A stretch of DNA of 64,000 bases from Candidatus Levyibacteriota bacterium (lineage in GTDB: Bacteria > Patescibacteriota > Microgenomatia > Levybacterales > UBA12049). Every line of letters begins with the position of its first letter. The stretch's first letter is position 1. Under the pieces are notes generated by a model. It did not search any database. It had not been told where the DNA came from and saw only the letters and a list, made by a program, of their open reading frames with translations. Positions 41,408 through 62,663 of the stretch are shown piece after piece. The stretch spans positions 40,566 to 104,565 of the forward strand of contig CAVRKE010000002.1 in NCBI GenBank assembly GCA_963722305.1, given 5' to 3'. The translations under genes and the position numbers were made by a program.

Positions 41408-43591
41408 ATGAAAAGACAATTTAGAAAATCAATCGCACTGCTCTTAACAGTATTCTTACTGTTTTTCTACGTGGCTTATCCGGTGCTGTCTTACGCCCAG
41501 GACGTTCCGACCGATACGCCAACGCCAACAGTTGATCCTTCGTCAAGCTCAGGACCTTCGGCGCCGACTGATACTCCGACACCAACCGTTGACCCTTCGG
41601 TAACGGACACGCCAACACCAACAGTTGATCCGACAGCTACCGACACTCCAACACCAACCATTGATCCATCGGCAGATCCTACTGATACGCCAACGGTAAC
41701 TCCGACCGATACGCCAACACCTACCACCGACATTTCTAACAATGCTGACGTTAACGACAATAGTCAATCGGATGCCAATAGCGGCGACAATACCATCATT
41801 AGTACCGGCAGTGCAACCGATGATGCCACCCCTTCGGCCGATGACAATTCCCAAAATCCAACCGATGACTCAACGGGAGCAGGTCAAAACGGTTCTTCAG
41901 CTGGCTCATCAATTAACACCGGCGACGCCACTTCGTCAACCTCGATTGTTAATGATGTCAACACTAACTCTATAAATTCCAGCGTTGTCAACCAAACGCT
42001 GAACATTTTTGTCGCCCAAAACGGCGACCTGAATTTGTCCGACCCTTTCACGATTGCGGCCGACGCCATTTCCGCTCATCCGCTGGACAGCGTCATTAAC
42101 GTTTCCGTCACCAATGTCAATAACTATGCCTATATTACCAACGACGTTGCCTCACAAGCTTTAACCGGACAAAACTTGATCAGTACCGCCGACCAAAGCG
42201 CTTCGCTGACTACCGGAAGCGCCGACAGCGCAGTTTCGCTTTTAAACAAAGTCAATTTTACGGTGGTTAATTCGCAAATCCATTTGGTGACAATAAACAT
42301 TTTTGGCAACTTAAACGGCAACATCATTTTGCCCGACCCAACCGCTTCGACCAATTGTTCTGGTTGCGGTGTAAGTACCACTATTAATAATACCGCTACG
42401 GTTAACAATAATCTTAGCTCAACTGCCGATACCGGTAATAATTCAATTGTGGCCTCAGGCAGCGCCACCATTGTAACCGGAAATGCCCAAAGCGCTGTTA
42501 ATACTTTAAACATTGTTAATACCAATCTCTTAGGCGCTAATGCCGAAGTTTTATATATTAACGATTTAGGGACTTGGAATGGCAATTTTATCGGCTGGGG
42601 TAATTTTGCGGCGACCAGTGGCGGAGGAAGCCTGGTCCTTTACAGTCTTACTCCCGGCGCAGGCGGCTCTCCAACCGACCTGACTCAAGCCGGCATTACT
42701 AATACTGCTTTTGTCACTAACAACGTTTCCTCTTTGGCTTTAAGCGGCGGCAATTCGATTAACGGCGGGAATTCTTCGATTACCACCGGCAATGCTTTCA
42801 GCGCCATTTCTTTAATGAATTTTATTAACACTAATTTTATCAACTCGTTTGGTTTTTTTGGCTTTATTAATATTTTCGGTAACTGGACCGGCAATATTGG
42901 CGGAGCCAGTCAGTTTGCCGCTTTGAATGCAGCCAATTCCGATACTTCCCCATCCAGCGACTCGGGGACCGGTAACGCAAATACGACTCAGGACCAAGGC
43001 GGACAGCTAAGTATTGATAATACCAATAATGTCGGCTTATATGCTTTACCCGGCGATACGGTCACATTCTTCATGACAATTAAAAATAGCGGAACCGGTA
43101 AAGTTTATGGGACAAAACTAAACTTGACGCTTATGCATAACGGTCAAGCCTTAGGAACAGCCAGCTTTGCTTTGGGTGATATTGCCGGAGGGCAAAGTGG
43201 AAAAGTCACCACCGGCATTGTTCTTCCCAAAAATACTCTTCCGGGCTATTACATTGCGGTCGCAGATGTTAGCGGCAATGTCGGACCGGACAACAGTTCT
43301 GTTTCGGCCAACTCCAATAGTGACTTTACGGTTTTTGGTAGGACCATTGTCGCCGCTGCCAGCTATAACGGTGGCAACCATCCAAAAACGGCTGTTTTAG
43401 GCTCGACAAATAAAAAAGGTCTGGCTATTAAAAGCGCTGCTGAAAACTTGCTCTATCTTTCCTTAATTTTCCTACTGCTTTTTGTCTATTTCTCTTTAAG
43501 ATTAATCAGAGGCAGAAAATATCTGCTTGAAGTAATCTCCAGCCCCAGTTTTAAAGAAAAACTGGTCTCGATACGGATGCTGCTTTTATAA
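41408..43591 (+). CDS. Large surface protein: signal/TM, Pro-Thr repeat linker, at least 4 copies of the same N/T/S repeat, DUF11/CARDB-like domain, C-terminal TM anchor
   Basis: PTDTPTPTVDPS x6. Repeats such as NTAFVTNNVSSLALSGGNSINGGNSSITTGNAFSAISLMNFINTN. DUF11-like LYALPGDTVTFFMTIKNSGTGKVYGT. C-terminal LYLSLIFLLLFVYFSL. Confidence 0.55.
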   Translation: MKRQFRKSIALLLTVFLLFFYVAYPVLSYAQDVPTDTPTPTVDPSSSSGPSAPTDTPTPTVDPSVTDTPTPTVDPTATDTPTPTIDPSADPTDTPTVTPTDTPTPTTDISNNADVNDNSQSDANSGDNTIISTGSATDDATPSADDNSQNPTDDSTGAGQNGSSAGSSINTGDATSSTSIVNDVNTNSINSSVVNQTLNIFVAQNGDLNLSDPFTIAADAISAHPLDSVINVSVTNVNNYAYITNDVASQALTGQNLISTADQSASLTTGSADSAVSLLNKVNFTVVNSQIHLVTINIFGNLNGNIILPDPTASTNCSGCGVSTTINNTATVNNNLSSTADTGNNSIVASGSATIVTGNAQSAVNTLNIVNTNLLGANAEVLYINDLGTWNGNFIGWGNFAATSGGGSLVLYSLTPGAGGSPTDLTQAGITNTAFVTNNVSSLALSGGNSINGGNSSITTGNAFSAISLMNFINTNFINSFGFFGFINIFGNWTGNIGGASQFAALNAANSDTSPSSDSGTGNANTTQDQGGQLSIDNTNNVGLYALPGDTVTFFMTIKNSGTGKVYGTKLNLTLMHNGQALGTASFALGDIAGGQSGKVTTGIVLPKNTLPGYYIAVADVSGNVGPDNSSVSANSNSDFTVFGRTIVAAASYNGGNHPKTAVLGSTNKKGLAIKSAAENLLYLSLIFLLLFVYFSLRLIRGRKYLLEVISSPSFKEKLVSIRMLLL
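41500..41725 (+). repeat. Imperfect tandem DNA repeats (~33-36 bp units) encoding the PTDTPTPTVDPS linker
   Basis: Repeated CCGAC(C/T)GATAC(G/T)CCAAC(A/G)CCAAC(A/C)GTTGATCC units are visible in the sequence. Confidence 0.5.
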
Positions 43592-46490: not shown

Positions 46491-47405
46491 TTAACTGGCA
46501 TTGGGGCTCTTAATGATATGTTTCTTGCGCTCAGCGATTATTCCCAAACCAAGTCTTAAGATTGTTTCTTCCAAAACTTTTCTGATATCCGAACCTTTTT
46601 GGTAATTTCCCGTATATGGCCCAAGCGTAATTCTGTTTCCTCTGGCCAGTTCATAGCCTTTTTCGAAACTGCCAAAGGGAGCTGAGACGCCAATGCCCGT
46701 CCCGCCGTTTCCGGTAATGGCCGAAAGGCAGGGAATGTCACTTGGCCCGTCACCTAAATAAATCATCTGGGGAAAGGGAATCCTTTGCATATTTCCTGGG
46801 ATTGAATCGTTAATTGTGTAGGGATTGTCTCTTAAATCTTTAACGCTAATGCCTTTTCGGATTCCGTGAACATATCTGGTTTTTTCGGTAAAAGTAATCG
46901 TTGACTTTACGCCAAATGGTTGTTGAGAATTTTTATTGTAGGCGAAATTACAACCGAAAATGCCGTCAACCAGCGGAGCAATCTTGGTACTTCTGATTAT
47001 CTCTTCCAAACCACCGCTGATGATGTAAAACTCAAGCGAAATTTTGGCATTTTTGAGCTCTTTATTAGCTCTGACATAATCCTTGAGCTCTTGCAAAGCC
47101 TTCGGCAGTCCCGGAAACAAAGAAAGCTTCCGACCTGTATCTATTAGTGCTTTTTTTGAAATATCGAGCTTTTGTGCTTGAGTAAGCTCAAGCATCTTTT
47201 GCATGTAGGCAAGCGGAGGATCCCAGGCCTGTCTGACCATGTCATTGACCTCTGCCCAAAACTGCTTAACATCAATTCCTTGCTTTTCTAGAAAAAACGA
47301 AATCGTATCCGGCCCTAAGGTCTCGTCAAAATCAAAAATAATTCCAATCACTGCTTCAACCATGCAACAATTATAGCACTCCTTATTATGTAAAAGGCTT
47401 ATCAC
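46491..47405 (-). CDS. HAD-superfamily hydrolase
   Basis: Motif I FDFDETL, motif IV YLGDGPSD. The start may be the internal Met (MVEAVIG...) at about 47363. Confidence 0.65.
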   Translation of the reverse strand: MISLLHNKECYNCCMVEAVIGIIFDFDETLGPDTISFFLEKQGIDVKQFWAEVNDMVRQAWDPPLAYMQKMLELTQAQKLDISKKALIDTGRKLSLFPGLPKALQELKDYVRANKELKNAKISLEFYIISGGLEEIIRSTKIAPLVDGIFGCNFAYNKNSQQPFGVKSTITFTEKTRYVHGIRKGISVKDLRDNPYTINDSIPGNMQRIPFPQMIYLGDGPSDIPCLSAITGNGGTGIGVSAPFGSFEKGYELARGNRITLGPYTGNYQKGSDIRKVLEETILRLGLGIIAERKKHIIKSPNAS

Positions 47406-47880
47406 TTAAGTGTTTGCCGAAAAGGTGTTCGGTTTCGCCAAACCAGGCGTTTTCGTGGGTGCCGATATACTTGAAACCTTTACTTTGGTAGAAACCCTTA
47501 TTCTTTTCCGTTTCCGTATAAAGATAAATATAATGGAATTTATTTTCCAAAGCCCATTTTTCCATTTGTTCCAAAAGTGCGCTGCCAACTCCCTTACCCC
47601 GGTATTGTTTGACCACAATAAACCATTCGACAAAAACTACTCCTCCATATTCCGGTTTTAAGGCGATAAATCCGACTAAATTGTTATTTACGTAAACTCC
47701 GAAGATAACATTTTGTTTAATCTTTAAAAAATCCCTGAAAAACTTTTTGCCATAGATTTTTTTATAGGAAGTTTTTGTTTTTGTTTGATAAGGAAAATCT
47801 TCACCAAGAGAAACTCCAATTATTTCCGCAACTTTATCCGCGTCTTTTATAGAAATAATTTTACTAATTTTATAATTCAT
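47386..47880 (-). CDS. GNAT family N-acetyltransferase
   Basis: VKQYRGKGVGSALLEQMEKWALEN. Confidence 0.8.
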   Translation of the reverse strand: MNYKISKIISIKDADKVAEIIGVSLGEDFPYQTKTKTSYKKIYGKKFFRDFLKIKQNVIFGVYVNNNLVGFIALKPEYGGVVFVEWFIVVKQYRGKGVGSALLEQMEKWALENKFHYIYLYTETEKNKGFYQSKGFKYIGTHENAWFGETEHLFGKHLSDKPFT

Positions 47881-47987: not shown

Positions 47988-50837
47988 ATGCTGCCTAGGA
48001 ATTTAGATACGCTACTTTCTCCAAAATCAATTGCCGTGGTTGGTGCCTCCAGTGCGCCGGAAAAAGTCGGGGCAATTGTTTTAAGCAACATTGTTGCTTC
48101 AAAATTTACCGGCCACCTTTATCCTGTTAACCCAAACGAGCAAAAAATAAATAATCTACAGTGTTATCCAAATGTCAAAAGCCTTCCCGAAATAGTCGAT
48201 TTGGCAGTAATTGCCATTCCCTCGAATTTGGTTAACCAGGTTCTGATTGAAATCGGGGAAAAGGGCATTAAAAATGTGGTGGTTTTTAGCGCCGGCTATA
48301 AAGAAATCGGTCCGGACGGAAAAGCTTTGGAAGATGCTCTTATCCAAATTGCCCAAAAATATAATTTGAACATTTTGGGGCCGAATTGTTTGGGGTTTGT
48401 CAACAATCTTTGTCCGGTTAATGTTACTTTCGGCCAACCGGTGCATCAGGAAGGAAACTTACGTTTTGTTTCCCAATCGGGCGCTTTGGCTGCCAGCCTT
48501 TTTGACTACTGTAATGCTACCGGTTTAGGTTTTAGAGAATTTATCACTTTAGGTAATAAAGCGGTGGTTAACGAAAATGACGTTTTAGCGCATTTTTTGG
48601 ACCAAGATAAAAAAATGCCCGATGACGGTAAACAATATCCAATCGGCATGTATTTGGAATCAATTTCCGACGGTAAAGAACTCCTAGAAATTACCCGACA
48701 GCTGTCTTTGAAAAATCCGGTTTTTATTATTAAACCCGGCAAGACTCAGGCTGCCGCCAAAGCAATGCAGTCCCACACCGGCGCAATTGCCGGAGCCGAC
48801 AACGTTTTGCAGGAAGCGCTATTAGAAACAGGGGTCACCCGCTGTGAAACCTTGGAAGATTATTTTGATTTATCCCGCGCGATGTCTTGGGAAAAAGCAC
48901 CAATGGGACCAAAAGTGGCCATCGTTTCCAATGCCGGCGGCCCGGCAGTGATTAGCGCCGACGCGGTGGCAATGGAAGGCTTAGAGTTAGCCGAGTTTGA
49001 TGATGAAACTAAACAGAAATTGCACGAAGTACTGCCCCGCTATGCCAGCGTTTTGGATCCGGTTGACGTCTTGGGAGATGCTTTAGCCGACAGAATTGGC
49101 AAAGCCTGCGAGATCATTTTGCAAACCAATAAAGCACAAAGTTTAGTGGTAATCTTAACTCCCCAAGTGATGACCCAAATTGAAAAAACCGCAGAAAGGA
49201 TCGGAGAACTTGGTAAAAAATATAGTATCCCGATTTTTTGTTCTTTTATCGGCGGCTCACTAATTGCCGAAGGCGAGAAGAAACTAAATGAATTTAAAAT
49301 TCCCTCGTTCAGATTTCCGGAAAGAGCAATTTCCGCCATTAAACAGATGTGGAAATGGAAAGAATGGCAGCAAAAAAATGTCAATTTGACCCTTCCGCAA
49401 CCGAGCTGTCTTCTCTCCGATGACAACAAAAACAAAGTCCGTGCTATCTTAACCAAAGCTTTAACCGCCCACCAAACTTCCTTAGACAATTTAGATGCTA
49501 ACGAAATCCTAAAGTTATCCGGCATTCCTACTCCACCAACCCAAGTCGTTACGACTATCGATGAGGCCAAAAAATTTGCGGCGGAAAATGTTTGGCCGGT
49601 GGTTTTAAAACTTTCTTCGCCCGGGCTTTTACACAAAGCCGACGTCGGCGCGATTATCACCAAAATCGGAAATGACGGTGAACTGGAAACCGCCATGGTT
49701 AATCTTGACCACAAAATTACCGAGCTACCTGCCAATATCCAAGCTCACGTCGTTAAGCAAATCCAAAAAGGCATTGTCTACGGCATTGAAGTCATTGTTG
49801 GCATCAAACGCGACCCAAATTTCGGCCCGGTACTGTTATTCGGCGCCGGCGGAAAATTGGCGGAGCTGATTATGGACAGGAATTTACACCTTCTGCCAAC
49901 GAATTTGGATCAGGTTAAAGAACTGGTGACTCAATCAAAAATCTACATCATGCTTAAAGGTTATCGTGGAGAACCACCGTTTGCCTTAGATAAGCTATAC
50001 GACACTATTATGAAGTTAACCAGTTTAATCGATTGCCTACCGCAAGTTTCGCAAATCGAGATAAACCCTTTAATCGTTACTCAAAACGATGTCTGGGCGG
50101 TTGACGGAAAAGTGGTATTTGAAGAACAGGCAAAACCGGCGGTAAATCCTCCTCAATTTAAAGTTGCCGAAACAATTGAATGTGAAACCTTAGCCGGCAA
50201 CTTCCACAGCTTTGTTTTTAAGATTGAAGCACCGCTTAAGTTTATACCGGGCCAATACATCAGCGTTAAAGTTGCCACTACCCGCATTAACAGTTATTCG
50301 ATTGCCGACCATGACGGTGAAAATAAATTTGGGCTCTTAATTGACACTTCGCCCGGAGGACCCGGCTCCAAATATTTTGAGAACTTAAAAGTCGGCGACA
50401 AGATAACTTACCTTGGACCATTCGGGATATTCACTTATAAACCCGACCCCGTTAAAAATATTTTATTTCTGGCAACCGGTTCGGGTTTGGCTCCTCTTAG
50501 GTGCATTATTGATGACCTTTTGAAAGTCCGGAACGTTCAGACACCGATTACTCTTTATCTGGGGCTAAGATTCCCGGCCGACGTTTTCTGGCAGGATTAT
50601 TTTGCCGACTTAGCTAAACAATATCCAAATTTCCACTTTATCTTGGCAATTTCCAAACCCGACCAAACCTGGAAAGGCAAAACCGGACATATTACCGACC
50701 TGGTTGCGAAGGATTTTCCCGATGCCTCACAATGCTGCGCTTACCTTTGCGGTAATAAATTAATGGTGGAGGAAACAACTCAGATTTTAATTTCCCATGG
50801 TTGTAAAAAAGAGCGTGTGTACACCGAAAAATTCTGA
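47988..50837 (+). CDS. ADP-forming acetyl-CoA synthetase (fused alpha-beta) with a C-terminal ferredoxin-NADP reductase-like FAD/NAD(P)-binding domain
   Basis: CoA-binding SIAVVGASSAPEKVGAIV, succinyl-CoA-ligase-like and ATP-grasp regions (about 700 aa), then FNR-like RINSYSIAD, LGPFGIF, FLATGSGLAP, ERVYTEKF. Confidence 0.8.
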   Translation: MLPRNLDTLLSPKSIAVVGASSAPEKVGAIVLSNIVASKFTGHLYPVNPNEQKINNLQCYPNVKSLPEIVDLAVIAIPSNLVNQVLIEIGEKGIKNVVVFSAGYKEIGPDGKALEDALIQIAQKYNLNILGPNCLGFVNNLCPVNVTFGQPVHQEGNLRFVSQSGALAASLFDYCNATGLGFREFITLGNKAVVNENDVLAHFLDQDKKMPDDGKQYPIGMYLESISDGKELLEITRQLSLKNPVFIIKPGKTQAAAKAMQSHTGAIAGADNVLQEALLETGVTRCETLEDYFDLSRAMSWEKAPMGPKVAIVSNAGGPAVISADAVAMEGLELAEFDDETKQKLHEVLPRYASVLDPVDVLGDALADRIGKACEIILQTNKAQSLVVILTPQVMTQIEKTAERIGELGKKYSIPIFCSFIGGSLIAEGEKKLNEFKIPSFRFPERAISAIKQMWKWKEWQQKNVNLTLPQPSCLLSDDNKNKVRAILTKALTAHQTSLDNLDANEILKLSGIPTPPTQVVTTIDEAKKFAAENVWPVVLKLSSPGLLHKADVGAIITKIGNDGELETAMVNLDHKITELPANIQAHVVKQIQKGIVYGIEVIVGIKRDPNFGPVLLFGAGGKLAELIMDRNLHLLPTNLDQVKELVTQSKIYIMLKGYRGEPPFALDKLYDTIMKLTSLIDCLPQVSQIEINPLIVTQNDVWAVDGKVVFEEQAKPAVNPPQFKVAETIECETLAGNFHSFVFKIEAPLKFIPGQYISVKVATTRINSYSIADHDGENKFGLLIDTSPGGPGSKYFENLKVGDKITYLGPFGIFTYKPDPVKNILFLATGSGLAPLRCIIDDLLKVRNVQTPITLYLGLRFPADVFWQDYFADLAKQYPNFHFILAISKPDQTWKGKTGHITDLVAKDFPDASQCCAYLCGNKLMVEETTQILISHGCKKERVYTEKF

Positions 50838-50849
50838 TAAGATATTTAA

Positions 50850-52571
50850 ATGGAAGAAAAAATTTTTAGCGTTACAATTGGCGGAGCGGCAGGACAAGGC
50901 ATTAAGGCGGCCGGCCTGATGTTGGCAAAAGTCGCAACGAGACTTGGTAAAAACGTTTACACCTATTCCGAGTTTCCTTCGCTTATCAAAGGCGGACATA
51001 ATTTAACCCAGGTTTCCATTTCCCAAGAATCAGTCACTGCCCCAAGAAAAACTAATCAATTCTGGGTTGCGCTTGACCAGAATACTTTGAATGTTCATCT
51101 GAACGAGTTTACTGACGGATGCGAAATTCTTTTTGATGAGGAACGAAAATATGATCTGTCAAAAATCAATAAAAATTCTATTCTTTTACCACTTCCCTTG
51201 GGAAAATTGGCCAAAGACGCCGGCGGCTCGGAGATAATGAGTAATACTGTCGCGGTTGGTGCGGTTGTCGCAATGCTAAGCGGAGATTTACAAGTTGTTA
51301 AAGACTTATTACAGGATGAGTTCGGGCACAAGGGTGAAGAAGTTGTAAGACTAAATCATCTGGCGGCAGAAAACGGTTATAATTACGCTTTGGAACATTT
51401 TGGAGATAGGAAAAAGGTGATCTTGACCAAGGAAGACACAGTTGAACCGAAAATGGTGACTAATGCCAACGACGCGGTGGCCCTTGGCGCAATTGCCGCC
51501 GGCCTGCAGTTTGCCGCCATTTATCCGATGTCTCCGATTTCCGAAATTCTGACTGTTTTGGCAGCTAATCAGGAACAATTCGGCTACATTTACAAACAAC
51601 CCGAAGATGAAATTGCCGCCATAAATATGGCTATCGGCGCCTCTGTCGCCGGGGCAAGAGCAATGACTGCCACTTCGGGCGGCGGATTTAGCCTCATGGT
51701 TGAAGGGTATGGGTTGGCCGCAATGATTGAAACGCCCTTAGTCATTATTGACGGGATGCGCCCCGGGCCTGCCACCGGACTGCCAACCTGGAGTGCTCAG
51801 GGAGATTTGCGGTTCGTACTCCATGCACATCAGGGAGATTTTCCCAAAATTGTTTTGGCTGCCGGAGACGCCGAAGAAGCTTTTTACTTAACCATGCAGG
51901 CCTTTAATTTGGCCGACAAGTACCAAACTCCGGTAGTGCTTTTGATTGATAAAAATATTTGCGAGCATGACCAAAGTATGCCGATTTTTGACTATGCAAA
52001 CTATAATATCGATAGAGGGAAGTTCACAAGCGAAAATAAAGACGGGTATGAAAGATATGCTTTGACTGATGATGGCATTTCCGAAAGAACTGTCCCCGGC
52101 TCCGGCAATTTTTTTATTGCCAATTCTTACGAACACACCCCACTTGGCCATGATTCCGAGGAAATTATCGATATTGAAGCCCAGATGCGCAAAAGGATGA
52201 AAAAACTGGTTACCTGCGCCGCTAACGAAGACATCTCGCCAAAACTGTACGGTCCGGCCGAAGGTGCCAACGCCACCATCGTTTCTTGGGGCAGTAACAA
52301 AGGTAGCATTCTTGAAGCTTTGAAAAACTTTCCGAATGTTAACTTTCTAGACATTACTTGGATGAGCCCATTTCCCGTTGAACAAGTTAAAAAAGTGTTG
52401 CTAAACGCCAAACATGTTGTCAATATTGAATGCAATTATACCGCGGCCTTGGGCGGATTAATTAAAGAGCAGACCGGAATCGAAATTAGTGATAATTTTT
52501 TGAAATACGACGGCCGGCCGTTTTTTCCAGAAGAAATTATTAAGAAATTAGAAACTGTTTTGCAAAAATAA
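50850..52571 (+). CDS. 2-oxoacid:ferredoxin oxidoreductase alpha subunit (fused gamma-alpha)
   Basis: N-terminal POR gamma-type domain ITIGGAAGQGIKAAGLMLAK, followed by the POR/KOR alpha domain. Confidence 0.85.
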   Translation: MEEKIFSVTIGGAAGQGIKAAGLMLAKVATRLGKNVYTYSEFPSLIKGGHNLTQVSISQESVTAPRKTNQFWVALDQNTLNVHLNEFTDGCEILFDEERKYDLSKINKNSILLPLPLGKLAKDAGGSEIMSNTVAVGAVVAMLSGDLQVVKDLLQDEFGHKGEEVVRLNHLAAENGYNYALEHFGDRKKVILTKEDTVEPKMVTNANDAVALGAIAAGLQFAAIYPMSPISEILTVLAANQEQFGYIYKQPEDEIAAINMAIGASVAGARAMTATSGGGFSLMVEGYGLAAMIETPLVIIDGMRPGPATGLPTWSAQGDLRFVLHAHQGDFPKIVLAAGDAEEAFYLTMQAFNLADKYQTPVVLLIDKNICEHDQSMPIFDYANYNIDRGKFTSENKDGYERYALTDDGISERTVPGSGNFFIANSYEHTPLGHDSEEIIDIEAQMRKRMKKLVTCAANEDISPKLYGPAEGANATIVSWGSNKGSILEALKNFPNVNFLDITWMSPFPVEQVKKVLLNAKHVVNIECNYTAALGGLIKEQTGIEISDNFLKYDGRPFFPEEIIKKLETVLQK

Positions 52572-52590
52572 TACCAAAGGTACTTTACGT

Positions 52591-53451
52591 ATGACACAAA
52601 TTGCCGATTTAACCACACAATGTTCACCAACCTGGTGCCCGGGTTGTGGAGATTTTGCCATTTGGGCGGCGTTTAAAAACGCCGCTGTTGCCCAAGGTTG
52701 GGATGATACCAATACGGTTTTGGTTGCCGGTATCGGCTGCCACGGACATATTTTGAATTATGTCAAACTGACTTCGGTTGAAGGCTTGCACGGCCGGGCC
52801 ATACCGGTGGCAACCGGCCTTAAAATGGCCAATCATAACCTGAATACTTTTGTTTTTACCGGCGACGGAGATTGTTTGGCAGAGGGTGGAAACCATTTTA
52901 TCAATGCCTGCCGCAGAAACCATGACCTTACCGTCCTTCTTCACGACAATGCCATTTATGGATTAACAACCGGTCAGACTTCGCCCCGTTCACCCCACGG
53001 ATTTAAATCAAAATCTACTCCTTTTGGTAACTTGGACGAACCGATTTCTCCAGTCAGTCTGGCGATTGCTTCCGGCGCAACTTTTGTCGCCAGAGAGTAC
53101 GCAGCTCATATTCCCCAACTGGCAGAGCTAATCGCTAAAGCCAACCAGCATAAAGGCTTTGCCCTGATTGATGTTTTACAGCCTTGTGTCACCTGGAACG
53201 AAGAATATAATCACGCTTTTTACCAAGCAAATACTTATTATCTCGGCGATGATCATGATAAAACCAGCGAGGTCAAAGCTTTTGAAAAATCGCTGGAGTG
53301 GGAAGAGAAGAAAATCCCCTTGGGAATTTTCTATGAGGCCGCAGGAAGGGCGTCTTATGAAATGCAAATTCCGCAAATTAAAGATAAAACTTTAGTGGCA
53401 ACGCCTCCCACCAAAAAAGACTTAACAGAGATTTTCAAAAAATACACCTAA
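52591..53451 (+). CDS. 2-oxoacid:ferredoxin oxidoreductase beta subunit (TPP-binding)
   Basis: WCPGCGDFAIW and GIGCHG...TGDGD TPP-binding motifs. Confidence 0.85.
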   Translation: MTQIADLTTQCSPTWCPGCGDFAIWAAFKNAAVAQGWDDTNTVLVAGIGCHGHILNYVKLTSVEGLHGRAIPVATGLKMANHNLNTFVFTGDGDCLAEGGNHFINACRRNHDLTVLLHDNAIYGLTTGQTSPRSPHGFKSKSTPFGNLDEPISPVSLAIASGATFVAREYAAHIPQLAELIAKANQHKGFALIDVLQPCVTWNEEYNHAFYQANTYYLGDDHDKTSEVKAFEKSLEWEEKKIPLGIFYEAAGRASYEMQIPQIKDKTLVATPPTKKDLTEIFKKYT

Positions 53452-53454
53452 AAC

Positions 53455-54162
53455 CTAATAACCGGTAAATATCTCCATGGCGATATTTTTTGCTTCAATT
53501 TGAAGTTCTCTCAAAATCTTGAAAGCCGGAATGACGAAACTTTGTTCTCCCGTTACAACATAAGTGCTATTTTGAAAATTTGGAATTTGATTTTTAATCA
53601 ATTCTGAATTTAGAGCATTGGCTTCCGAAATAATTGGAATGAACGTGAATGATGAGTTTTCTTTTGCGTAATCTGTAAGTTCTTGAAGAAACACCGCTTC
53701 CTCCTGATTTTTGCAAACGTAAATTAAGCCGACTTTATTCTGCAAAGACTTCGCCTTTACTTCCCTGATGATGCTCATAAATGGCGCCACGCCGATTGCG
53801 TCCGCGATCCACACGAACTGCTGATTAATATCGGCCGGAAGATGATTATGTCCGTCAACGCCGTCAATTTCTACTTCGGCTCCAACCGGAAGCTCTAATA
53901 ACGATTTTTTAAAAGCACTGGCGCCAATCTTAGTTAGTATTGAAATTGAGCCGGCTTCCGTCGGGCTGTTAATGAATCCGAATTTGCGGCTGTTGCCTCG
54001 TTCGTCGGCGTAAGGAGGATTTATCAATGTCAGTGAAAAAAATTGTCCGGCCACAAACGGAAACGGCTGACCCGATAAGTCTAATTGAACTTCGAATAAT
54101 TCTTTAGACAGCTGCTGCTTGTTTTTTATTTTTACTTTCATTCCTATCTTAAATAATAGCAC
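53455..54162 (-). CDS. FNR-like FAD/NAD(P)-binding oxidoreductase (no Fe-S domain)
   Basis: Beta-barrel FAD domain plus nucleotide-binding GVAPFMSII region. 235 aa. Confidence 0.55.
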   Translation of the reverse strand: MLLFKIGMKVKIKNKQQLSKELFEVQLDLSGQPFPFVAGQFFSLTLINPPYADERGNSRKFGFINSPTEAGSISILTKIGASAFKKSLLELPVGAEVEIDGVDGHNHLPADINQQFVWIADAIGVAPFMSIIREVKAKSLQNKVGLIYVCKNQEEAVFLQELTDYAKENSSFTFIPIISEANALNSELIKNQIPNFQNSTYVVTGEQSFVIPAFKILRELQIEAKNIAMEIFTGY

Positions 54163-54173
54163 ATCGCCGGATT

Positions 54174-54485
54174 TTGCTGCTTGAAAAGTTTTTTAAAAAT
54201 GTTTATGATAATTTAAGCATGGATAATCAAACGCCCGCAACCGGTGACCAAGAATTTCAAATCGGCAAATACAAGATTAAAGTCATCAGAGACCTTTGCA
54301 TTGGCGCCGCTTCGTGTGTTGCTGTTTCCCCCAGTACTTTCCAGCTGGACTCAGAGAATAAAGCCGTGGTCGAACCGGGCTCAAATGACACGCCGGAAAA
54401 CATTCTCATGGCCGCCCAGTCTTGTCCAACTAAAGCCATCATTATTATCGACACCGAAACCAATACCCAGGTCTGGCCTGCATAA
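54174..54485 (+). CDS. Small single-cluster ferredoxin
   Basis: CIGAASCVAVSP...CPTKAI matches the mono-cluster (Fer4_13/15-type) ferredoxin pattern. Confidence 0.6.
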   Translation: MLLEKFFKNVYDNLSMDNQTPATGDQEFQIGKYKIKVIRDLCIGAASCVAVSPSTFQLDSENKAVVEPGSNDTPENILMAAQSCPTKAIIIIDTETNTQVWPA

Positions 54486-54487
54486 AT

Positions 54488-55402
54488 ATGTCTTCAACTC
54501 TCAAAAAAGGCATTTACTTTGCGTTTTTGACTGCTCTTATTTCGGGGGTTTCAAACTTTGTGAATAAAATTGCGGTTGACGTGATTAAACCGCCTCTGGT
54601 TTTTACCGCCGAGAAAAATGCTTTTGTTGGACTACTGATTATCGGTGCGCTCATTGCCACCTGGAAATGGCAGAAAATTAAAAAGCTGAACAGGAAACAG
54701 ATTATTTATCTTTTGGCAATCGGTATTATTGGTGGCTCACTGCCTTTTTACCTCTTTTTTACCGGCCTGTCACAAATTCCGGCTATCAACGGCGCCATCA
54801 TTAATAAAACCTTAATTATTTGGGTAGCAATCTTAGCCATTCCGCTACTGAAAGAGCGAATGTCGCCGCTACTCGTTACTGCCGTGGCACTTTTATTTTA
54901 TGCCAATTTACTTATCGGCGGTTTTGCTAAATTTCAGTTTTCCCAGGGCGAATTATTTGTATTGCTAGCCACTCTGCTTTGGGCGGTGGAGTATGTTTTA
55001 GCTAAAAAAATTCTGCCGGAAGTTGATCCGGATATTGTTACTGCTGCCAGAATGGGTTTTGGTTCCTTAATCTTATTGGCCGCCGCCGCAGTGGTGGCGC
55101 CGGCCGCCTTGGTCAGGGGTTTTATCCCGACACCCACACAGTTTTTCTGGATGGCAACAACCGTTATCCTTTTGTTAGGATATGTGACTACCTGGTATCG
55201 GGCTTTGAAATTTGCGCCCGTGACGCTGGTTGCCTCGGTTTTAGTCAGTGCAACACTGATAACTAACGTTCTTTCGGCCATTTTTGTCACCCACGCTTTA
55301 GACTTAGGATTAGTCATTCAAGCCTTCTTTACGGTTTTAGGGGTTGTCTTCTTGTGGCTGGCTTCGGAAAAGCTTAGTTTTAAAAAAACTGCTGCAGTTT
55401 AA
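54488..55402 (+). CDS. EamA/DMT-superfamily transporter
   Basis: 10 TMs with a duplicated EamA-like architecture. Confidence 0.65.
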   Translation: MSSTLKKGIYFAFLTALISGVSNFVNKIAVDVIKPPLVFTAEKNAFVGLLIIGALIATWKWQKIKKLNRKQIIYLLAIGIIGGSLPFYLFFTGLSQIPAINGAIINKTLIIWVAILAIPLLKERMSPLLVTAVALLFYANLLIGGFAKFQFSQGELFVLLATLLWAVEYVLAKKILPEVDPDIVTAARMGFGSLILLAAAAVVAPAALVRGFIPTPTQFFWMATTVILLLGYVTTWYRALKFAPVTLVASVLVSATLITNVLSAIFVTHALDLGLVIQAFFTVLGVVFLWLASEKLSFKKTAAV

Positions 55403-55411
55403 TATTCGATA

Positions 55412-56821
55412 TTATTTGGCCACTTTAGACCTTTCATCTGAAACTTGTTTAAGATAAGGAAAAACCTCAATAATAACCTCAGGTTCTACCCGATGACCAA
55501 CCTTACCTTCATAAAATCCGTATCTGTTAATCATTTCTCCCAATAATAAATTAAAATGCATCGATTTTCCATTGGTTAAGTTGTGCACCTCGACATCTGT
55601 CCGACCACCCGTATCGTCATGAAAAGGAGAAAGAACTGCTGATACATAATTGCCCAACACGTCTACTTTATATTCACTCCCACGAAAAGCAAACTCTTCA
55701 CCAAATCCAAAATTTACTATCATTGCAACGTATCTAAGAGGTAGTGCCAAATCCTGATGAGTTAACCCAAGGCTTTGGACAAATTCGTTATCTACGGCAA
55801 GAACATCAATTAATGAATCGTCCTTTGAAATAAAACCGCCAAATGAAGCAGCTCCGCCTAGTTTTCCCGGCCGCATTTCATCCTCCAACTCTGCTAAAGA
55901 TTGGCCATTGAGGCCGTTTAAATTCCTAATTACCTCGGTACTATTAGTTCCACAGATCATAAATGATGGTGAAGATTTATCTGGATAAGGAGTCTGATCT
56001 TCTAAGCCCAACTCCTTTGCAGTAAGTTCTCTAGATTGCTGTATTTCTCCTAGGCTGGCTATACCAAGAGAATAAAATAATTCCCCGGTTAATAAGTTGC
56101 TCCTTAAACTAAGACTTATTGTTGGCGACAATGCTTTTGGATATTTATTGACAGCAAGTATTTCCGTTGTTTCATCAAGTTGATAATATTGAAATATTCT
56201 TTGATCAATTGGTGTTAAAAGCTGTAAGAGGACGTCATCTTTAATGATAGCAATTACATCTTGTTGTCCTCCGTCTTTGATTTTTATTTTCCAAACCCCC
56301 GAATCGTCTGGATCTTCTGTAAAATCGGCTGCTGCCAGCTGAGCAGTTATTGGCAATAATGATAATTGTTGTAATTTAGCTGTTAACTCATCTTCCGGTT
56401 TAGCCAAATAAGAATTCATCGATCCGTCTGTATAACTTCCTGTTGCTAAAACTCCATCTTTATTCGTTTGCAACACTTGAATTGCGGGTGTATTGCTAAA
56501 CTCGTCGAATCTACCAACAGAAATTGCCTTTACCTGTCGGGGGTCGATAAAATGTTCGTAATCAATAAAAAAATTGTACCTTCCGCTAACAGGATCTATA
56601 GTTAAAACAAACCCTTCTTTATCTTGATGGGCTAAATAAGCACTACCTCCGACAGACTTAAAACCTAATTCTGTTAGATGTTGCCTTCTTTGTTCTGCTA
56701 ATTGACTTGGCATTGGTCTTTCTCCCATATTGGTCGTAAAATTATACCCCGGCACGTTCATTTTGTCAACTATAGGCTTAAGGTTAGAGGTTTTTGAGTA
56801 CCTTCTTCGTCCAGTATTCAA
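55412..56821 (-). CDS. Uncharacterised protein (469 aa)
   Basis: No signal peptide or TM. No motif I can assign. An internal ...SFMICGTNST... is the only weakly Ntn-hydrolase-like feature. The true start may be MNVPGYNF at about 56761. Confidence 0.4.
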   Translation of the reverse strand: MNTGRRRYSKTSNLKPIVDKMNVPGYNFTTNMGERPMPSQLAEQRRQHLTELGFKSVGGSAYLAHQDKEGFVLTIDPVSGRYNFFIDYEHFIDPRQVKAISVGRFDEFSNTPAIQVLQTNKDGVLATGSYTDGSMNSYLAKPEDELTAKLQQLSLLPITAQLAAADFTEDPDDSGVWKIKIKDGGQQDVIAIIKDDVLLQLLTPIDQRIFQYYQLDETTEILAVNKYPKALSPTISLSLRSNLLTGELFYSLGIASLGEIQQSRELTAKELGLEDQTPYPDKSSPSFMICGTNSTEVIRNLNGLNGQSLAELEDEMRPGKLGGAASFGGFISKDDSLIDVLAVDNEFVQSLGLTHQDLALPLRYVAMIVNFGFGEEFAFRGSEYKVDVLGNYVSAVLSPFHDDTGGRTDVEVHNLTNGKSMHFNLLLGEMINRYGFYEGKVGHRVEPEVIIEVFPYLKQVSDERSKVAK

Positions 56822-57488
56822 GATTATTTATTTCTTCTTCCTCGAGAATTTTGACTACCATTTGCCAATGCACTGCTACCGTATCGCCCTTTTTCAGATT
56901 TGGAGCTAAAGCTGGATTAAACGGAATTTGAGTTTTGATTTTACTAAGTGAATATTTATTGCTTGATTTTTTCAATGAATTAAGATTAATAGTTGTCTTG
57001 TTTTTCGCAATTGACCGAACCTCTCCCCATCTAATCATGCAATTGTTGATCGAATTAAGATTAAACGGTACTGCACCACTGGCTTTACCGACACCGACGT
57101 GTAAAACGTGAAATAAATGACTGGGGATAAATTGTTTAGGCTTTTTGAGTTTTAATTCTTCGATAAAAAAATCCGGTACTCCCTGTTTCTTAAAATAATC
57201 TAACAAAACCGAATAATCTTTGGCTTTGAATTTTTTGAGAAGCTTATTTCCCAACCAATAACTTTCAATTACTGGATAGGAAAACTTTGGACGTTTGGTA
57301 ATTTTAGCAATTGTCTGAAGATAAGGATGCAAAACAATAAACTTCGTTACTTCTTCCTCAACGCCTACACATGTACCCTTGCTGATGCAATTTTTGAACT
57401 TGAAAGTGGCTGTTTTTTTGCCACAATAACCCAACGCATTGGGTGGCAAGGAAAAGCGTGATTCCAATTGTAAAGCGGTGTCTTTCAC
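56784..57488 (-). CDS. Uncharacterised Lys-rich protein with an N-terminal four-Cys cluster (234 aa)
   Basis: GYCGKKTATFKFKNCISKGTCVG. Co-directional with, and overlapping or abutting, the 55412 gene. Confidence 0.4.
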   Translation of the reverse strand: MKDTALQLESRFSLPPNALGYCGKKTATFKFKNCISKGTCVGVEEEVTKFIVLHPYLQTIAKITKRPKFSYPVIESYWLGNKLLKKFKAKDYSVLLDYFKKQGVPDFFIEELKLKKPKQFIPSHLFHVLHVGVGKASGAVPFNLNSINNCMIRWGEVRSIAKNKTTINLNSLKKSSNKYSLSKIKTQIPFNPALAPNLKKGDTVAVHWQMVVKILEEEEINNLEYWTKKVLKNL

Positions 57489-57574: not shown

Positions 57575-57991
57575 GTGCTGGATAAATCAATGAATATTTA
57601 TGTTTTTGGTAATGTTGATGTGCCCGAGGATAACCTGGCTTTTATAGTTGCCGATAAACTCAGGGGTGCAATTCCTCAGATTAAATTTGTGAAAGTAAAA
57701 CCAAATGAGGACCTGCCGTTTATTGGCAAGAAGCGGGTTGTAATCTTGGATGCAATTGAAGGCATTGAAAAGATAACTGAATTGAAAAACGCGGATTTAG
57801 ACAAGTTGGTTTTATCTAAAAGCCTAACGGTCCATGATTTCGATTTAGGCTTCCAACTAATGTACTTACAAAAAATCGGCAAGCTCGGAGATGTCATGAT
57901 TATCGGTTTACCGCTGAGAAAAAAAATCAACTATTCGCGGGTCCAGTCTATCTTGAGAAAATTAGTGGCGCAGGACATGCAGGGGTCGTAA
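57575..57991 (+). CDS. Hydrogenase maturation endopeptidase (HycI/HybD-like)
   Basis: IYVFGNVDVPEDNLAFIVADKL, VVILDAIEG, LTVHDFDLG and IIGLP match the protease family pattern. Adjacent to the hydrogenase. Confidence 0.6.
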   Translation: MLDKSMNIYVFGNVDVPEDNLAFIVADKLRGAIPQIKFVKVKPNEDLPFIGKKRVVILDAIEGIEKITELKNADLDKLVLSKSLTVHDFDLGFQLMYLQKIGKLGDVMIIGLPLRKKINYSRVQSILRKLVAQDMQGS

Positions 57992-59232
57992 GCCCGGACG
58001 ATTTTCTCCGCCGCCAAATGAAGAAAGGCTTCATCTTTGTCTAAATTTTCGTTAAAATATTTTTTTAAGTCGTTTTCAATTGTAATTTGGTTTTGTGAAG
58101 TCGGAACGATCACATCGTAATCCTCAATCAGCCCTTTGTCGTTAATTTTTGCCATGTGGTATAAAGTGCCGCGGGGCGCTTCGACTACCCCGACTCCCGT
58201 ACCGGCCTGAGGCGCTTTTCTGACCGGTTGTTCGGCTGTAATTTTAATTGTTTTTAAAATATCTAGGGCATCATCAACGCACTGCAAAACTTCGAGCGCC
58301 TGCGCCAGATTATTGTGGTACAAATTATTTGACGGAAAGACTTTAAGATATTCTTCCACGTCCGCTTTCGTCTGTGGGTTGAGTAAATCTTTATTAAAGT
58401 TTACACGCGCCAATGCGCCAACCAGATAATCCTCCTTGCCTGCGGAAAAAACGTAGCCGTTTGACTCCGAATACGGAATAACCACTTCTTCTAAGAAACT
58501 TAAGAAATCTTTAGCTTGAATCCTTTTGCCGCCGGAACTAACCAAATCGCCCTCCAAAAAATCAAACTGTTTATCGTTTCTTAGATATAAATAATCGGAA
58601 TTTCTAACTAATGACTCTTTCCAGTCATAAAAAGTTTTTATCCCCCGCAAAACCTGCGGTCTGATTGCTTGGAGTTTGGCAATTAAATCGGGAAATTTGG
58701 ACGGGTCAGCTGTTCTTAAAAATCCGCCGACTGTCGGAAACGGCGCGTGAATGGCCGCCCCGATTACGACATTAGTTATTTCCGTCCCGACTTTTTTAAT
58801 ATCAAACGAGTCATGTAGCAGCACATGCCCGGGACTATCGTGGTCATCCGGAATATCCAAAATCGAATCAACGCCCAAAACATCCGGCAGAGTGAAAAAA
58901 TACAAATGCAAAGCGTGGTCTCTAATCATTAACCCGTCGTAGGCTAAACGACGCAGTAGTTTTGTCTGTTCGGAAACTACAATCCCCTCTGCCATTTCAA
59001 TCGCTTTAATCGAGGCAAAAAGATGGGCAACAGAACAGGTCCCGCAAATTCTGGATAGAAATGAAGGCACCGCAATAATCGGCTTTCCTTTGACAGCCTG
59101 TGTATAAAAACGCCTGTAGTCCTGGATAATGAATTTTAAGTCGCTGACCTTATCGTTAGCAACGGTGACTTTAAGTCCGGCCGAGCCTTCAATTTTGGTA
59201 ATGTTATCAATGGTAATTTCGCCTGAGTGCAT
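57931..59232 (-). CDS. [NiFe]-hydrogenase large subunit
   Basis: N-terminal RICGTCSVAH. C-terminal DPCMSCATN followed by a 9-aa extension (processing site). Confidence 0.85.
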   Translation of the reverse strand: MHSGEITIDNITKIEGSAGLKVTVANDKVSDLKFIIQDYRRFYTQAVKGKPIIAVPSFLSRICGTCSVAHLFASIKAIEMAEGIVVSEQTKLLRRLAYDGLMIRDHALHLYFFTLPDVLGVDSILDIPDDHDSPGHVLLHDSFDIKKVGTEITNVVIGAAIHAPFPTVGGFLRTADPSKFPDLIAKLQAIRPQVLRGIKTFYDWKESLVRNSDYLYLRNDKQFDFLEGDLVSSGGKRIQAKDFLSFLEEVVIPYSESNGYVFSAGKEDYLVGALARVNFNKDLLNPQTKADVEEYLKVFPSNNLYHNNLAQALEVLQCVDDALDILKTIKITAEQPVRKAPQAGTGVGVVEAPRGTLYHMAKINDKGLIEDYDVIVPTSQNQITIENDLKKYFNENLDKDEAFLHLAAEKIVRAYDPCMSCATNFLKIDWTRE

Positions 59233-59736
59233 TTAGATAATTCCGAAAAGCTTTAAGTATTTTTGTAAAATTGTCTGAAAGGTAGTGACGTTCATCGGAC
59301 AACCCGGCACTACGTCGTCAACCTTAATTACCTCGTCCAGCTTTTTGACTTTCTGATTGTAATTAAAATCCTTTAAGTACCTTTGGATTTTCTCGTTTAA
59401 ATCTTTGTCTACAAACTGGTTTCTGGTGGCCGAGGGCAGCCCGGTAACGGCGCAGGCGCCGATTGCCACGACGTATTTGGCATTGGCGCGGATTTTTTGC
59501 ATTTCTTCCTCCTGTTTTTGCGAAGACGCGGCCCCCTCGATAAACGCCACGTCCAAATTGGTCATGTCGTTTTTCGTCTTTAGAGCCCGCATGTATCTAA
59601 ATTCTACCACCTTTTTCCATTCATCCAAATTGTCGTTTAGAAGCTCCGTCAAAAGAATGGTCGAATCCTCACAACAGGTAAAACTAAACCAACCAACCAC
59701 TAATTTCTTTTTTTGAGAAGTTTGAACAGAATCCAT
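59233..59736 (-). CDS. [NiFe]-hydrogenase small subunit (NuoB-like fold)
   Basis: WFSFTCCEDS, GACAVTG and VPGCP cysteine motifs. Confidence 0.8.
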   Translation of the reverse strand: MDSVQTSQKKKLVVGWFSFTCCEDSTILLTELLNDNLDEWKKVVEFRYMRALKTKNDMTNLDVAFIEGAASSQKQEEEMQKIRANAKYVVAIGACAVTGLPSATRNQFVDKDLNEKIQRYLKDFNYNQKVKKLDEVIKVDDVVPGCPMNVTTFQTILQKYLKLFGII

Positions 59737-60466: not shown

Positions 60467-60829
60467 TTATTTTAGCCCTTTTTGCAAGGCACGAAAACAT
60501 AACAGGGCGCAGTTGTGGCGGGCCGGAGTTATGGAAACCGGCAAAGTTTTGAGAACATCTTCATCTTTGATTTTACGAAGTTTTGAAAGCGTTTGATTTT
60601 TGATTTTTTCGGTGAAAAGCGAAGCCGAGGCTTTGGAAATTGCACAACCTTCGGCTGTAAATTGAACCGCAACCAGTTTGTTATTTTCAATTTTTCCCGT
60701 CAATCTTATTCTATCTCCGCAAGTCGTGTTTATTTCCGATACGTCGAAATCCGAATTTTTGACCGTTCCATAATTTTGCGGGTTTTGCCAATGCTCTAAA
60801 ATAATCTCCCTGTATAGTTGATCTTCCAT
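60467..60829 (-). CDS. sufU: SufU/IscU-like Fe-S cluster scaffold
   Basis: LYREIILEHWQNPQNYG, TTCGDRIRL, EGCAISKASASLFTE, RHNCALLCFRAL. Confidence 0.8.
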   Translation of the reverse strand: MEDQLYREIILEHWQNPQNYGTVKNSDFDVSEINTTCGDRIRLTGKIENNKLVAVQFTAEGCAISKASASLFTEKIKNQTLSKLRKIKDEDVLKTLPVSITPARHNCALLCFRALQKGLK

Positions 60830-60861
60830 AAATCTTTTTCTTATATCTTAAATCTTACGTC

Positions 60862-62633: not shown

Positions 62634-62663
62634 AATACTTCGCTCGATTCTTTCGGATTTCGC

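Follow-up and report, generated by a model that had tools for sequence, protein, structure and literature searches.

Candidate phyla radiation (CPR) bacteria, or Patescibacteria, are regarded as fermenters with minimal genomes, and the routes by which they re-oxidise ferredoxin and NAD(P)H are poorly defined. The DNA analysed here, a 64,000-nucleotide stretch of contig CAVRKE010000002.1 (positions 40,566 to 104,565, assembly GCA_963722305.1) from a Candidatus Levyibacteriota bacterium, hereafter the window, raises a specific question of this kind. It encodes a 949-residue protein in which an ADP-forming acyl-CoA synthetase (ACD) continues into a module of the ferredoxin-NADP reductase (FNR) type, followed by genes for a 2-oxoacid:ferredoxin oxidoreductase (OFOR), a small ferredoxin and a NiFe hydrogenase of the "hyd2" clade. 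Why should an ATP-forming enzyme carry a redox module, and with which partner would that module exchange electrons? The fusion is genuine and vertically maintained in CPR bacteria (Microgenomates/WWE3). With moderate confidence, we propose that its C-terminal module is a tethered NAD(P)H:ferredoxin oxidoreductase within an ATP-yielding fermentation module leading from 2-oxoacid to acid, and that the ferredoxin is shared with hyd2.

Domain architecture of the ACD-FNR fusion

The fusion gene and its parts are arranged as follows (aa, amino acids; pLDDT, predicted local distance difference test).

47988..50837, plus strand: ACD-FNR fusion gene, an open reading frame (ORF) of 949 aa with six Pfam domains above cut-offs
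47988..49382, plus strand: ACD alpha part, aa 1-465, with CoA-binding, Succ_CoA_lig and Ligase_CoA_2 subdomains
49455..50117, plus strand: ACD beta part, aa 490-710, an ATP-grasp_5 domain with the second histidine, H549
50118..50159, plus strand: linker between the ACD and FNR modules, approximately aa 711-724, poorly conserved and of low pLDDT
50160..50834, plus strand: FNR-type FAD/NAD(P)H module, aa 725-949, FAD_binding_6 and NAD_binding_1

A preliminary description of this DNA, made from the sequence alone, had read the protein as a complete ADP-forming synthetase with an FNR-type domain appended. All six Pfam domains indeed score above their gathering cut-offs: CoA_binding_2 (residues 13-139), Succ_CoA_lig (156-298), Ligase_CoA_2 (310-457) and ATP-grasp_5 (490-710, E 9e-57), then, in the C-terminal domain, FAD_binding_6 (731-817; 43.0 bits, cut-off 21.1) and NAD_binding_1 (827-930; 62.3 bits, cut-off 22). 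Pfam gave no GNAT domain match in the ORF, and no flavodoxin/FMN domain. NCBIfam models of ADP-forming acyl-CoA ligases match the N-terminal 700 residues, and those of the MmoC, BenC, AntC, Fre and NqrF FNR modules match residues 727-949. Among solved structures, residues 8-699 align to 8wzu, a fused alpha-beta 4-hydroxybutyryl-CoA synthetase (E 2e-122), and residues 751-948 to the FAD/NADH domain of NqrF (E 3e-23); the FNR module has its nearest solved relatives in the NqrF FAD domain, GcoB, BenC and MmoC.

The ACD half contains the motifs SHTGA (262-266) and LHKAD (548-552). H263 (nt 48774-48776, within SHTGA), the predicted phospho-histidine of the alpha part, aligns to "shtga" of 8wzu, and H549 (nt 49632-49634) aligns to "HKsD" of 8wzu and to the beta subunit 4xyl_B. 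Both histidines are invariant in an alignment of 120 sequences, whereas Pat has an ACD-like body without the critical histidine (PMC3195501), and the N-terminal 710 residues therefore look like a catalytically competent NDP-forming acyl-CoA synthetase. The substrate specificity is left general here because the NCBIfam equivalog scores fall under their cut-offs: both acetate-CoA ligase models score too low (TIGR02717, 466.8 against 567.15; NF045494, 401.7 against 1200), and the best match, NF045493 (4-hydroxybutyrate-CoA ligase), reaches 483.6, far under its cut-off of 1300.

The motifs of the FNR module are GGPGS (790-794), GPFG (810-813), TGSGLAP (830-836), YLCGN (919-923) and the C-terminal YTEKF (945-949). 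Three of the motifs named in the preliminary description, GPFG, TGSGLAP and YTEKF, were thus located, but the fourth, RxYS, is not canonical. The region reads R766-I-N768-S-Y770-S771, with N768 opposite the canonical Arg of the "RAYS" of NqrF, and a canonical [VI]RAYS is present in some homologues. In the 120-sequence alignment, Y770, S771, G791, G793, S794, G813, T830, G831, G922 and E947 of this half are invariant. Flavin binding by the module is assumed. No Fe-S domain or Cys cluster was found in it, and the protein stops at EKF right after the NAD domain.

Conservation and structure model of the fusion

A homologue search covered 5.8 billion proteins. Among the 120 clusters listed from its matches, at least 119 are homologues of 930-990 aa with the same Pfam architecture and 55-77% identity; one further cluster is a 100%-identical fragment. 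The fused clusters come from JGI, ENA, NCBI and Logan assemblies, and the few source names given are Levyibacteriota, Roizmanbacteria and Patescibacteria. Furthermore, a scan of GTDB species-representative genomes with an alignment of fusion residues 640-949 recovered 21 loci with a fused gene, labelled Levyibacteria, Roizmanbacteria, WWE3 or Patescibacteria, one of them the complete genome CP006914. This survey, which the preliminary description had called for, also bears on the concern raised there that the junction might be a missed stop codon. That a missed stop or a frameshift merged two adjacent genes during sequencing or assembly has a negligible probability, being refuted by continuous ORFs of 930-990 aa in at least 119 independent clusters and by the fused state of all 21 representative loci. 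The fusion had been called unusual; this is true among characterised enzymes, but many Microgenomates/WWE3 bacteria have it, which makes it a trait of the lineage and no isolated case.

By column conservation, the FNR and ACD halves are under about equal constraint. Conservation is lowest in the alpha-beta linker (466-495) and across the ACD-FNR junction (706-735), where position 715 is an indel hotspot. An AlphaFold2 model of the fusion has a mean pLDDT of 92 and a predicted TM-score (pTM) of 0.74, with low confidence at residues ~250-270 and 353-360 and in the linker at 717-720, where pLDDT drops below 50; low values at ~250-270 would be expected for a mobile phospho-histidine loop. In Foldseek searches against the PDB, the TM-score normalised by target length (TMt) is 0.90 for the ACD part superposed on 8wzu and 0.75-0.81 for the FNR part superposed on NqrF and cytochrome b5 reductase. 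Over the whole chain, PatZ matches best; it has a GNAT domain appended at the same junction. The preliminary description had raised electron channelling or regulation of the enzyme as possible effects of the fusion. Because the linker of some 15 residues is variable and modelled with low confidence, it argues for a tether rather than a rigid composite active site.

A conserved gene cluster downstream of the fusion

The genes that follow the fusion in conserved order are listed below (TPP, thiamine pyrophosphate).

50850..52571, plus strand: OFOR alpha (gamma-alpha fused, 573 aa), POR and POR_N domains, TIGR03710
52591..53451, plus strand: OFOR beta (286 aa), predicted TPP-binding with a single [4Fe-4S] cluster, Pfam domains and TIGR02177
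54219..54485, plus strand: mono-cluster ferredoxin (88 aa), Fer4_13 and Fer4_15, three Cys (CxxAxxC...CP)
54488..55402, plus strand: EamA-family transporter, a conserved cluster member by synteny
56784..57488, minus strand: DUF6390 protein, conserved, between the transporter and the hydrogenase genes
57575..57991, plus strand: HycI-like hydrogenase maturation protease, PF01750 at 23.0 bits, a weak match exactly at the cut-off
57931..59232, minus strand: NiFe hydrogenase large subunit HydL (433 aa), related to group 3b, hyd2 clade
59233..59736, minus strand: truncated hydrogenase small subunit HydS (166-167 aa), proximal-cluster part only

The OFOR alpha gene begins 12 nt past the fusion gene. 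The alpha and beta subunits announced in the preliminary description score above the model cut-offs (TIGR03710, 609.4 bits against 482.75; TIGR02177, 309 against 261.9), and the pair is predicted to form a two-subunit 2-oxoacid:acceptor oxidoreductase. The match of OFOR alpha to TIGR03710 is to a broad-specificity subfamily model only.

The ferredoxin, likewise correctly foreseen as a mono-cluster protein (Fer4_13 and Fer4_15 matches), probably starts at the ATG at 54219, as judged by comparison with its orthologues. Exactly three Cys are present in all 22 recovered orthologues, in the pattern C-I-[GS]-A-x-x-C ... C-P, and the position of the fourth ligand is Ala in every one. Elsewhere this position is Cys in Thermotoga maritima 1vjw (CIGCGVC), Asp in Pyrococcus furiosus (CIGDAIC) and His in the CYP51-ferredoxin fusion of Methylococcus capsulatus, 6mcw (CKGHGNC). 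Because of the Ala at this position, the co-encoded ferredoxin is predicted, by established ferredoxin chemistry, to bind a [3Fe-4S] cluster, which is a caution for any model that requires a very low potential.

Proteins of the window were mapped onto the related loci (numbered with the prefix L) by tblastn. The conserved order is ACD-FNR, OFOR alpha, OFOR beta, ferredoxin, EamA, DUF6390 (minus strand), HycI-like (plus), HydL (minus) and HydS (minus). Both OFOR genes and the ferredoxin occur in every one of the 17 fused loci whose downstream sequence reaches 3.5 kb or more, and HydL in 10 of the 11 that reach 8 kb or more. The association was also approached from the hydrogenase side by a metagenome scan with a HydL alignment, counting the 18 loci with at least 8 kb of relevant flank. 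The FNR domain was found in 16/18, always contiguous with ACD where the sequence reaches, the ferredoxin in 16/18 and OFOR alpha in 15/18. Exceptions are L079, which has an 8-kb insertion, and L142; the context is also absent at L112, whose flank covers 6.9 kb, and from the short contigs of a soil clade. ACD-FNR, ferredoxin and hyd2 are kept without an intervening OFOR in L013 and L140, and L131 likewise has no OFOR in the cluster. Conversely, L019 has ACD-FNR, OFOR and ferredoxin with no hyd2 in ~7 kb of further flank. L022 has the same gene set; this locus begins within the FNR domain, so its fused state is not readable.

Several of the metagenome-assembled genome records that carry the CPR cluster (L004, L010, L013, L020, L023-L025) bear labels such as "uncultured Gammaproteobacteria", "Pseudomonadales", "Candidatus Methanoperedens" and "Saccharibacteria". 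These probably reflect mis-assigned taxonomy or mis-binned contigs.

Unfused and ligase-swapped variants

In five related loci the ligase and the FNR are separate, or the ligase is of another type.

L040: free 714-aa ACD, Pyr_redox_2 flavoprotein, flavodoxin and a free 232-aa FNR directly upstream of OFOR alpha, then the cluster including hyd2
L024: free 230-aa FNR upstream of OFOR alpha, no ACD nearby
L025: ACD, flavodiiron protein, TrmB, then a free FNR ~6 kb from OFOR alpha
L023: AMP-forming acyl-CoA synthetase (AMP-binding and AMP-binding_C), a gap of ~10 nt, free FNR, then OFOR and ferredoxin
L026: AMP-forming acyl-CoA synthetase (AMP-binding and AMP-binding_C), a gap of ~10 nt, FNR, within which the locus ends

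The type of ligase has thus been swapped at a fixed position of the cluster in L023 and L026 (ligase/FNR at L023:8404-10816 and L026:8354-10651), and an unfused FNR of 230-253 aa stands directly upstream of OFOR alpha in L023, L024 and L040. Since OFOR and ferredoxin are the constant neighbours and the ligase may be of either type, the partner of the FNR module is probably the OFOR/ferredoxin pair, perhaps also the hydrogenase, and not the ATP-forming step.

A search of a representative library with the FNR domain only returned 13,147 relatives, of which the nearest are ACD-fused proteins and free proteins of 227-246 aa (35-61% identity). In a neighbour-joining tree of FNR domains, to be taken as a hint only as it has no support values, L024, L025 and L040 fall outside the fused clade and L023 inside it. 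This is compatible with a single fusion event and a later replacement of the ligase. Matches of 403-688 aa were considered as alternative fusions and rejected, as they are contig-end fragments of the same ACD-FNR architecture. The redox genes located between the unfused ACD and FNR (L040:8267-9961; L025:7372-9333) hint at detoxification of O2 or NO, or at alternative electron carriers.

The neighbouring hydrogenase

The NiFe hydrogenase that had been placed nearby is encoded by HydL and HydS at 57931..59736 on the minus strand, ~3.4 kb beyond the fusion-side genes. The nearest solved structures of HydL are the group 3b sulfhydrogenase alpha subunits 5yxy and 9nez_D (E ~1e-55), and its motifs RICGTC and DPCMSC are invariant. 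HydS aligns only to residues ~5-154 of the 261-aa delta subunit HydD, and for this reason lacks the region of the medial and distal clusters. No genes for beta or gamma hydrogenase subunits adjoin HydL/HydS in the window. In these respects the pair matches, at the sequence level, the description of the CPR-specific hyd2, whose small subunits are truncated to a mean of 164 aa and which has no consistent beta/gamma subunits (Jaffe et al. 2020, PMC7304191). The role of this widespread enzyme was explicitly left open in 2020, its electron partners were called unknown, and proteins with NAD-binding motifs were noted nearby on the other strand (PMC7304191). The ACD-FNR fusion and the divergent cluster are not mentioned in that paper, and our literature search turned up no follow-up on hyd2 beyond it.

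It may be, though this is less likely than not, that ACD-FNR and the three-Cys ferredoxin are the missing electron partners of hyd2, with the single-cluster HydS docking the free ferredoxin and the FNR module serving as a detached diaphorase. If so, a single tiny ferredoxin would link the ATP-yielding oxidation of 2-oxoacids, the NAD(P)H balance and the exchange of H2 within a modular unit of ~10 kb, and the subunits of a group-3-type hydrogenase would be organised in a new way. The cluster in any case names concrete and testable candidate partners of hyd2. The FNR domain was also considered as a true 3b gamma subunit; this was rejected, as it has no Fe-S motif and scores 34.1 bits against the NF040835 cut-off of 650.

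Some details of the hydrogenase genes stand apart. HydL ends in DPCMSCATNFLKIDWIR; the residue following its last Cys, which in group 3 is usually His or Arg, is an Asn that is invariant in 15 sequences. The proximal-cluster ligands of HydS are also unusual. Across 84 orthologues (L002-L158), C21, C95 and C146 are invariant, C22 is found in 67% (otherwise Ser) and C97 in 85%; the HydS of the window has V97 and a "TCCEDS" motif instead of the usual CxxC. The HycI-like gene always adjoins HydL in related loci, and in the window the 3' end of HydL overlaps this convergent gene by ~60 nt. DUF6390 is encoded in 17/18 hyd2 loci when flanks of 8 kb or more are required and in 37/45 when 1.5 kb suffices, and this conserved protein of unknown function may have a role in hydrogenase maturation or function.

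Proposed role and alternative explanations

In the scheme that we favour, the two-subunit OFOR would oxidise a 2-oxoacid, probably pyruvate, to acyl-CoA and reduce the co-encoded three-Cys ferredoxin. The ACD part would then convert acyl-CoA, ADP and Pi to acid, ATP and CoA via phospho-His263 and His549, and EamA may export the acid product. The tethered FNR module would equilibrate ferredoxin with NAD(P)+/NAD(P)H, and the minimal hyd2 hydrogenase would couple the same ferredoxin pool to H2. The fusion itself most likely arose between neighbouring genes in the order ligase-FNR-OFOR. Its effect would be that both parts are made in equal amounts and stay close together, with no need for new chemistry at the ATP-forming site. 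For the fusion module we infer the cofactor, the direction of electron flow, the ferredoxin partnership and the identity of the substrate.

A compact pyruvate-to-acetate, ATP-yielding pathway that reoxidises its own ferredoxin had been proposed in the preliminary description. This reading is strengthened by the finding that the module is a compact, conserved syntenic unit in many CPR genomes, but "pyruvate" and "acetyl-CoA" were assumed. The pathway logic is not new, since a scheme of pyruvate:ferredoxin oxidoreductase (POR or PFOR), acetyl-CoA synthetase and ferredoxin-NADP reductase was earlier drawn from the annotation of another Microgenomates genome (PMC7143001). For WWE3 RAAC2, which is our locus L009, PFOR, ACD and a "3B-like" hydrogenase were listed and the fusion was not noted (Kantor et al. 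2013, PMC3812714). A full-text literature search found no publication describing an ACD-FNR fusion. The protein is a domain arrangement of two well-known families that is undescribed in the literature searched, though already in databases under generic names; new here are the fusion itself, its tight synteny with hyd2 and the invariant three-Cys ferredoxin.

Several observations weigh against the proposed tethered oxidoreductase. The potentials of [3Fe-4S] clusters are often too high for efficient H2 evolution or NAD(P)+ reduction, and the nearest characterised FNR modules (NqrF, BenC, MmoC and GcoB) feed [2Fe-2S] centres, not 3Fe or 4Fe ferredoxins. Asn replaces the canonical Arg of RxYS, the ACD part falls short of the NCBIfam cut-off for acetate-CoA ligase (466.8 against 567), and the pTM of 0.74 is uninformative on whether the FNR docks onto the ACD body.

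It is possible, although we consider it doubtful, that the FNR module and the three-Cys ferredoxin are above all the missing diaphorase of hyd2, replacing the gamma (NAD(P)-binding) and beta (Fe-S) subunits of group 3b. ACD-FNR, ferredoxin and HydSL would then constitute an NAD(P)H-linked H2-evolving or H2-consuming system, possibly as a physical complex. The short small subunit of hyd2 and the absence of beta/gamma genes fit this explanation, as do the statement that its partners are unknown with NAD-binding-motif proteins nearby on the other strand (PMC7304191), the presence of the FNR domain and of the ferredoxin each in 16/18 hyd2 loci with enough flank, and the weak homology of the FNR module to sulfhydrogenase gamma (9nez_C, NF040835). 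L013 and L140, which retain ACD-FNR, ferredoxin and hyd2 but not OFOR, point the same way. However, the cluster occurs without a nearby hyd2 in L019 (and in L022, its fused state not being readable), and hyd2 without the cluster in L142, apparently also in L112 and the soil clade. Moreover, the C-terminal [2Fe-2S] motif of HydG/PyrK-type subunits is absent from the FNR module, and the fusion and hydrogenase genes lie on opposite strands, 7 kb apart. The loci without OFOR in the cluster (L013, L131 and L140) speak against a different arrangement, a split pyruvate:NAD(P)+ oxidoreductase in which the flavin of the FNR takes electrons directly from the [4Fe-4S] cluster of OFOR beta and no free ferredoxin takes part. 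Such an arrangement would resemble the eukaryotic pyruvate:NADP+ oxidoreductase (PNO), which is a precedent for it, and would suit the position of the FNR coding sequence immediately 5' of OFOR alpha (12 nt here, with the free FNR adjacent in L023, L024 and L040). Yet conservation within the cluster is just as high for the ferredoxin gene (22 orthologues), the FMN/flavodoxin mediator domain found in PNO is missing, and the FNR is tethered to ACD and not to OFOR, so that we regard this arrangement as unlikely.

The direction of the pathway could also be assimilatory, the ligase activating acetate, OFOR acting as a pyruvate synthase and ferredoxin being reduced by hyd2 with H2, by the FNR with NAD(P)H, or by both. 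The ACD and OFOR reactions are reversible, an AMP-forming synthetase, which usually works in the activating direction, fills the ligase slot in L023 and L026, and hyd2 may have an uptake role. Nevertheless, a predicted [3Fe-4S] ferredoxin would be a poor low-potential donor for reductive carboxylation. CPR bacteria have, furthermore, been described as obligate fermenters that make ATP by substrate-level phosphorylation (PMC3812714, PMC7143001), and we hold the assimilatory direction to be quite improbable. Even less probability is given to a regulatory explanation, in which the FNR domain senses redox state for ACD or regulates it, as the preliminary description had suggested for the fusion, or the ACD-like body is a non-catalytic scaffold sensing acyl-CoA as in Pat/PatZ. 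PatZ (ACD-like plus GNAT), with a domain appended at the same junction, is after all the best whole-chain structural match. But Pat is without the critical histidine (PMC3195501), while H263 and H549 are invariant in 120 sequences. Conservation also extends to the catalytic motifs of the FNR, among them the CG motif and the aromatic residue at the C-terminus, and orthologues of the module exist as free-standing proteins.

Other genes in the window

Between OFOR beta and the ferredoxin lies a further gene.

53455..54141, minus strand: accessory free-standing FNR-like flavoprotein (228 aa from M8), weak Pfam and NCBIfam matches

Its ORF spans 53455..54162, and the start is probably M8 at 54141. 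The preliminary description counted a second FNR-like protein in the module; it is present, but it is encoded on the minus strand, divergent (NAD_binding_1 24.6 bits, FAD_binding_6 below cut-off) and accessory, with orthologues in only six loci (L002, L084, L086, L092, L095 and L102). The family motifs are RGNSRxFGF, GPSAFKK, GGIGIAP and a C-terminal EIFTGY; the copy in the window has a degenerate NAD motif, DAIGVAP, where the orthologues have GGIGIAP. The slot that it occupies is a variable insertion site, with unrelated ORFs of 0.5-3.5 kb in other loci. On account of both its few occurrences and these unrelated ORFs, the gene was rejected as a core part of the cluster.

A GNAT acetyltransferase gene (window 47386-47880, minus strand) lies divergently, directly upstream of the ACD-FNR gene, and had no tblastn match in any related locus. 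It is a curious neighbour, as Pat-type enzymes join a GNAT domain to an ACD-like body. A 469-aa ORF between EamA and DUF6390 (window 55412-56821, minus strand) has no Pfam or NCBIfam match; as it also has no tblastn match in any related locus, it appears to be specific to the source genome. Just upstream of HydS, a SufB-SufD-SufS-NifU operon for Fe-S assembly (window 60467-63923, minus strand) is found, and the operon stands beside HydS also in several related loci (L002, L004, L079, L084, L086, L095, L103 and L155). Given the many Fe-S proteins encoded in the cluster, the two may form a functional neighbourhood. At some distance, a 727-aa ORF (window 41408-43591, plus strand) gave no Pfam match, and tRNA and Rfam scans of the window found nothing.

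Comparison with known systems

The ADP-forming acyl-CoA synthetases of Ca. Korarchaeum (ACD1, 4xyl) and Nitrosopumilus (8wzu) have the same body of five subdomains in alpha-then-beta order. They share both phospho-histidines with the fusion at 30-33% identity, with TMt of up to 0.90-0.91 for the ACD part. The fusion differs from them in its additional C-terminal FNR module of 225 residues and in scoring under the NCBIfam equivalog cut-offs. The Pat/PatZ lysine acetyltransferases (9it0, 9isq) share the NDP-forming scaffold and likewise have a domain appended at the same junction, near residue 720. Here, however, the appended domain is FNR and not GNAT, and the catalytic histidine lost in Pat is retained, so that the protein falls outside that family.

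With NqrF, BenC (1krh), MmoC (1tvc), GcoB (5ogx) and Fre/LuxG the fusion shares the FAD_binding_6 plus NAD_binding_1 fold, the GxxS, GPxG, GTGxAP and CG motifs and the C-terminal EKF. In contrast to the NqrF, oxygenase and P450 reductases, it has no attached [2Fe-2S] domain, the Arg of RxYS stands two residues away from its usual place and the module is joined to an ATP-grasp domain.

In the PNO of Euglena and Cryptosporidium, PFOR is fused to an FMN and FAD domain resembling NADPH-P450 reductase. The cluster is like PNO in that an oxidoreductase of the 2-oxoacid:ferredoxin type is linked to an NAD(P)-reducing flavoprotein by fusion or adjacency. It differs in that the FNR is joined to the next enzyme of the pathway, ACD, and that a separate ferredoxin is encoded, and it does not belong with PNO. 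Finally, the neighbouring HydL/HydS are related to the group 3b (sulf)hydrogenases and hyd2, and the gamma subunit of the former is a distant homologue of the FNR module; unlike that subunit, the module has no Fe-S motif, is encoded on the other strand from the hydrogenase and is fused to ACD.

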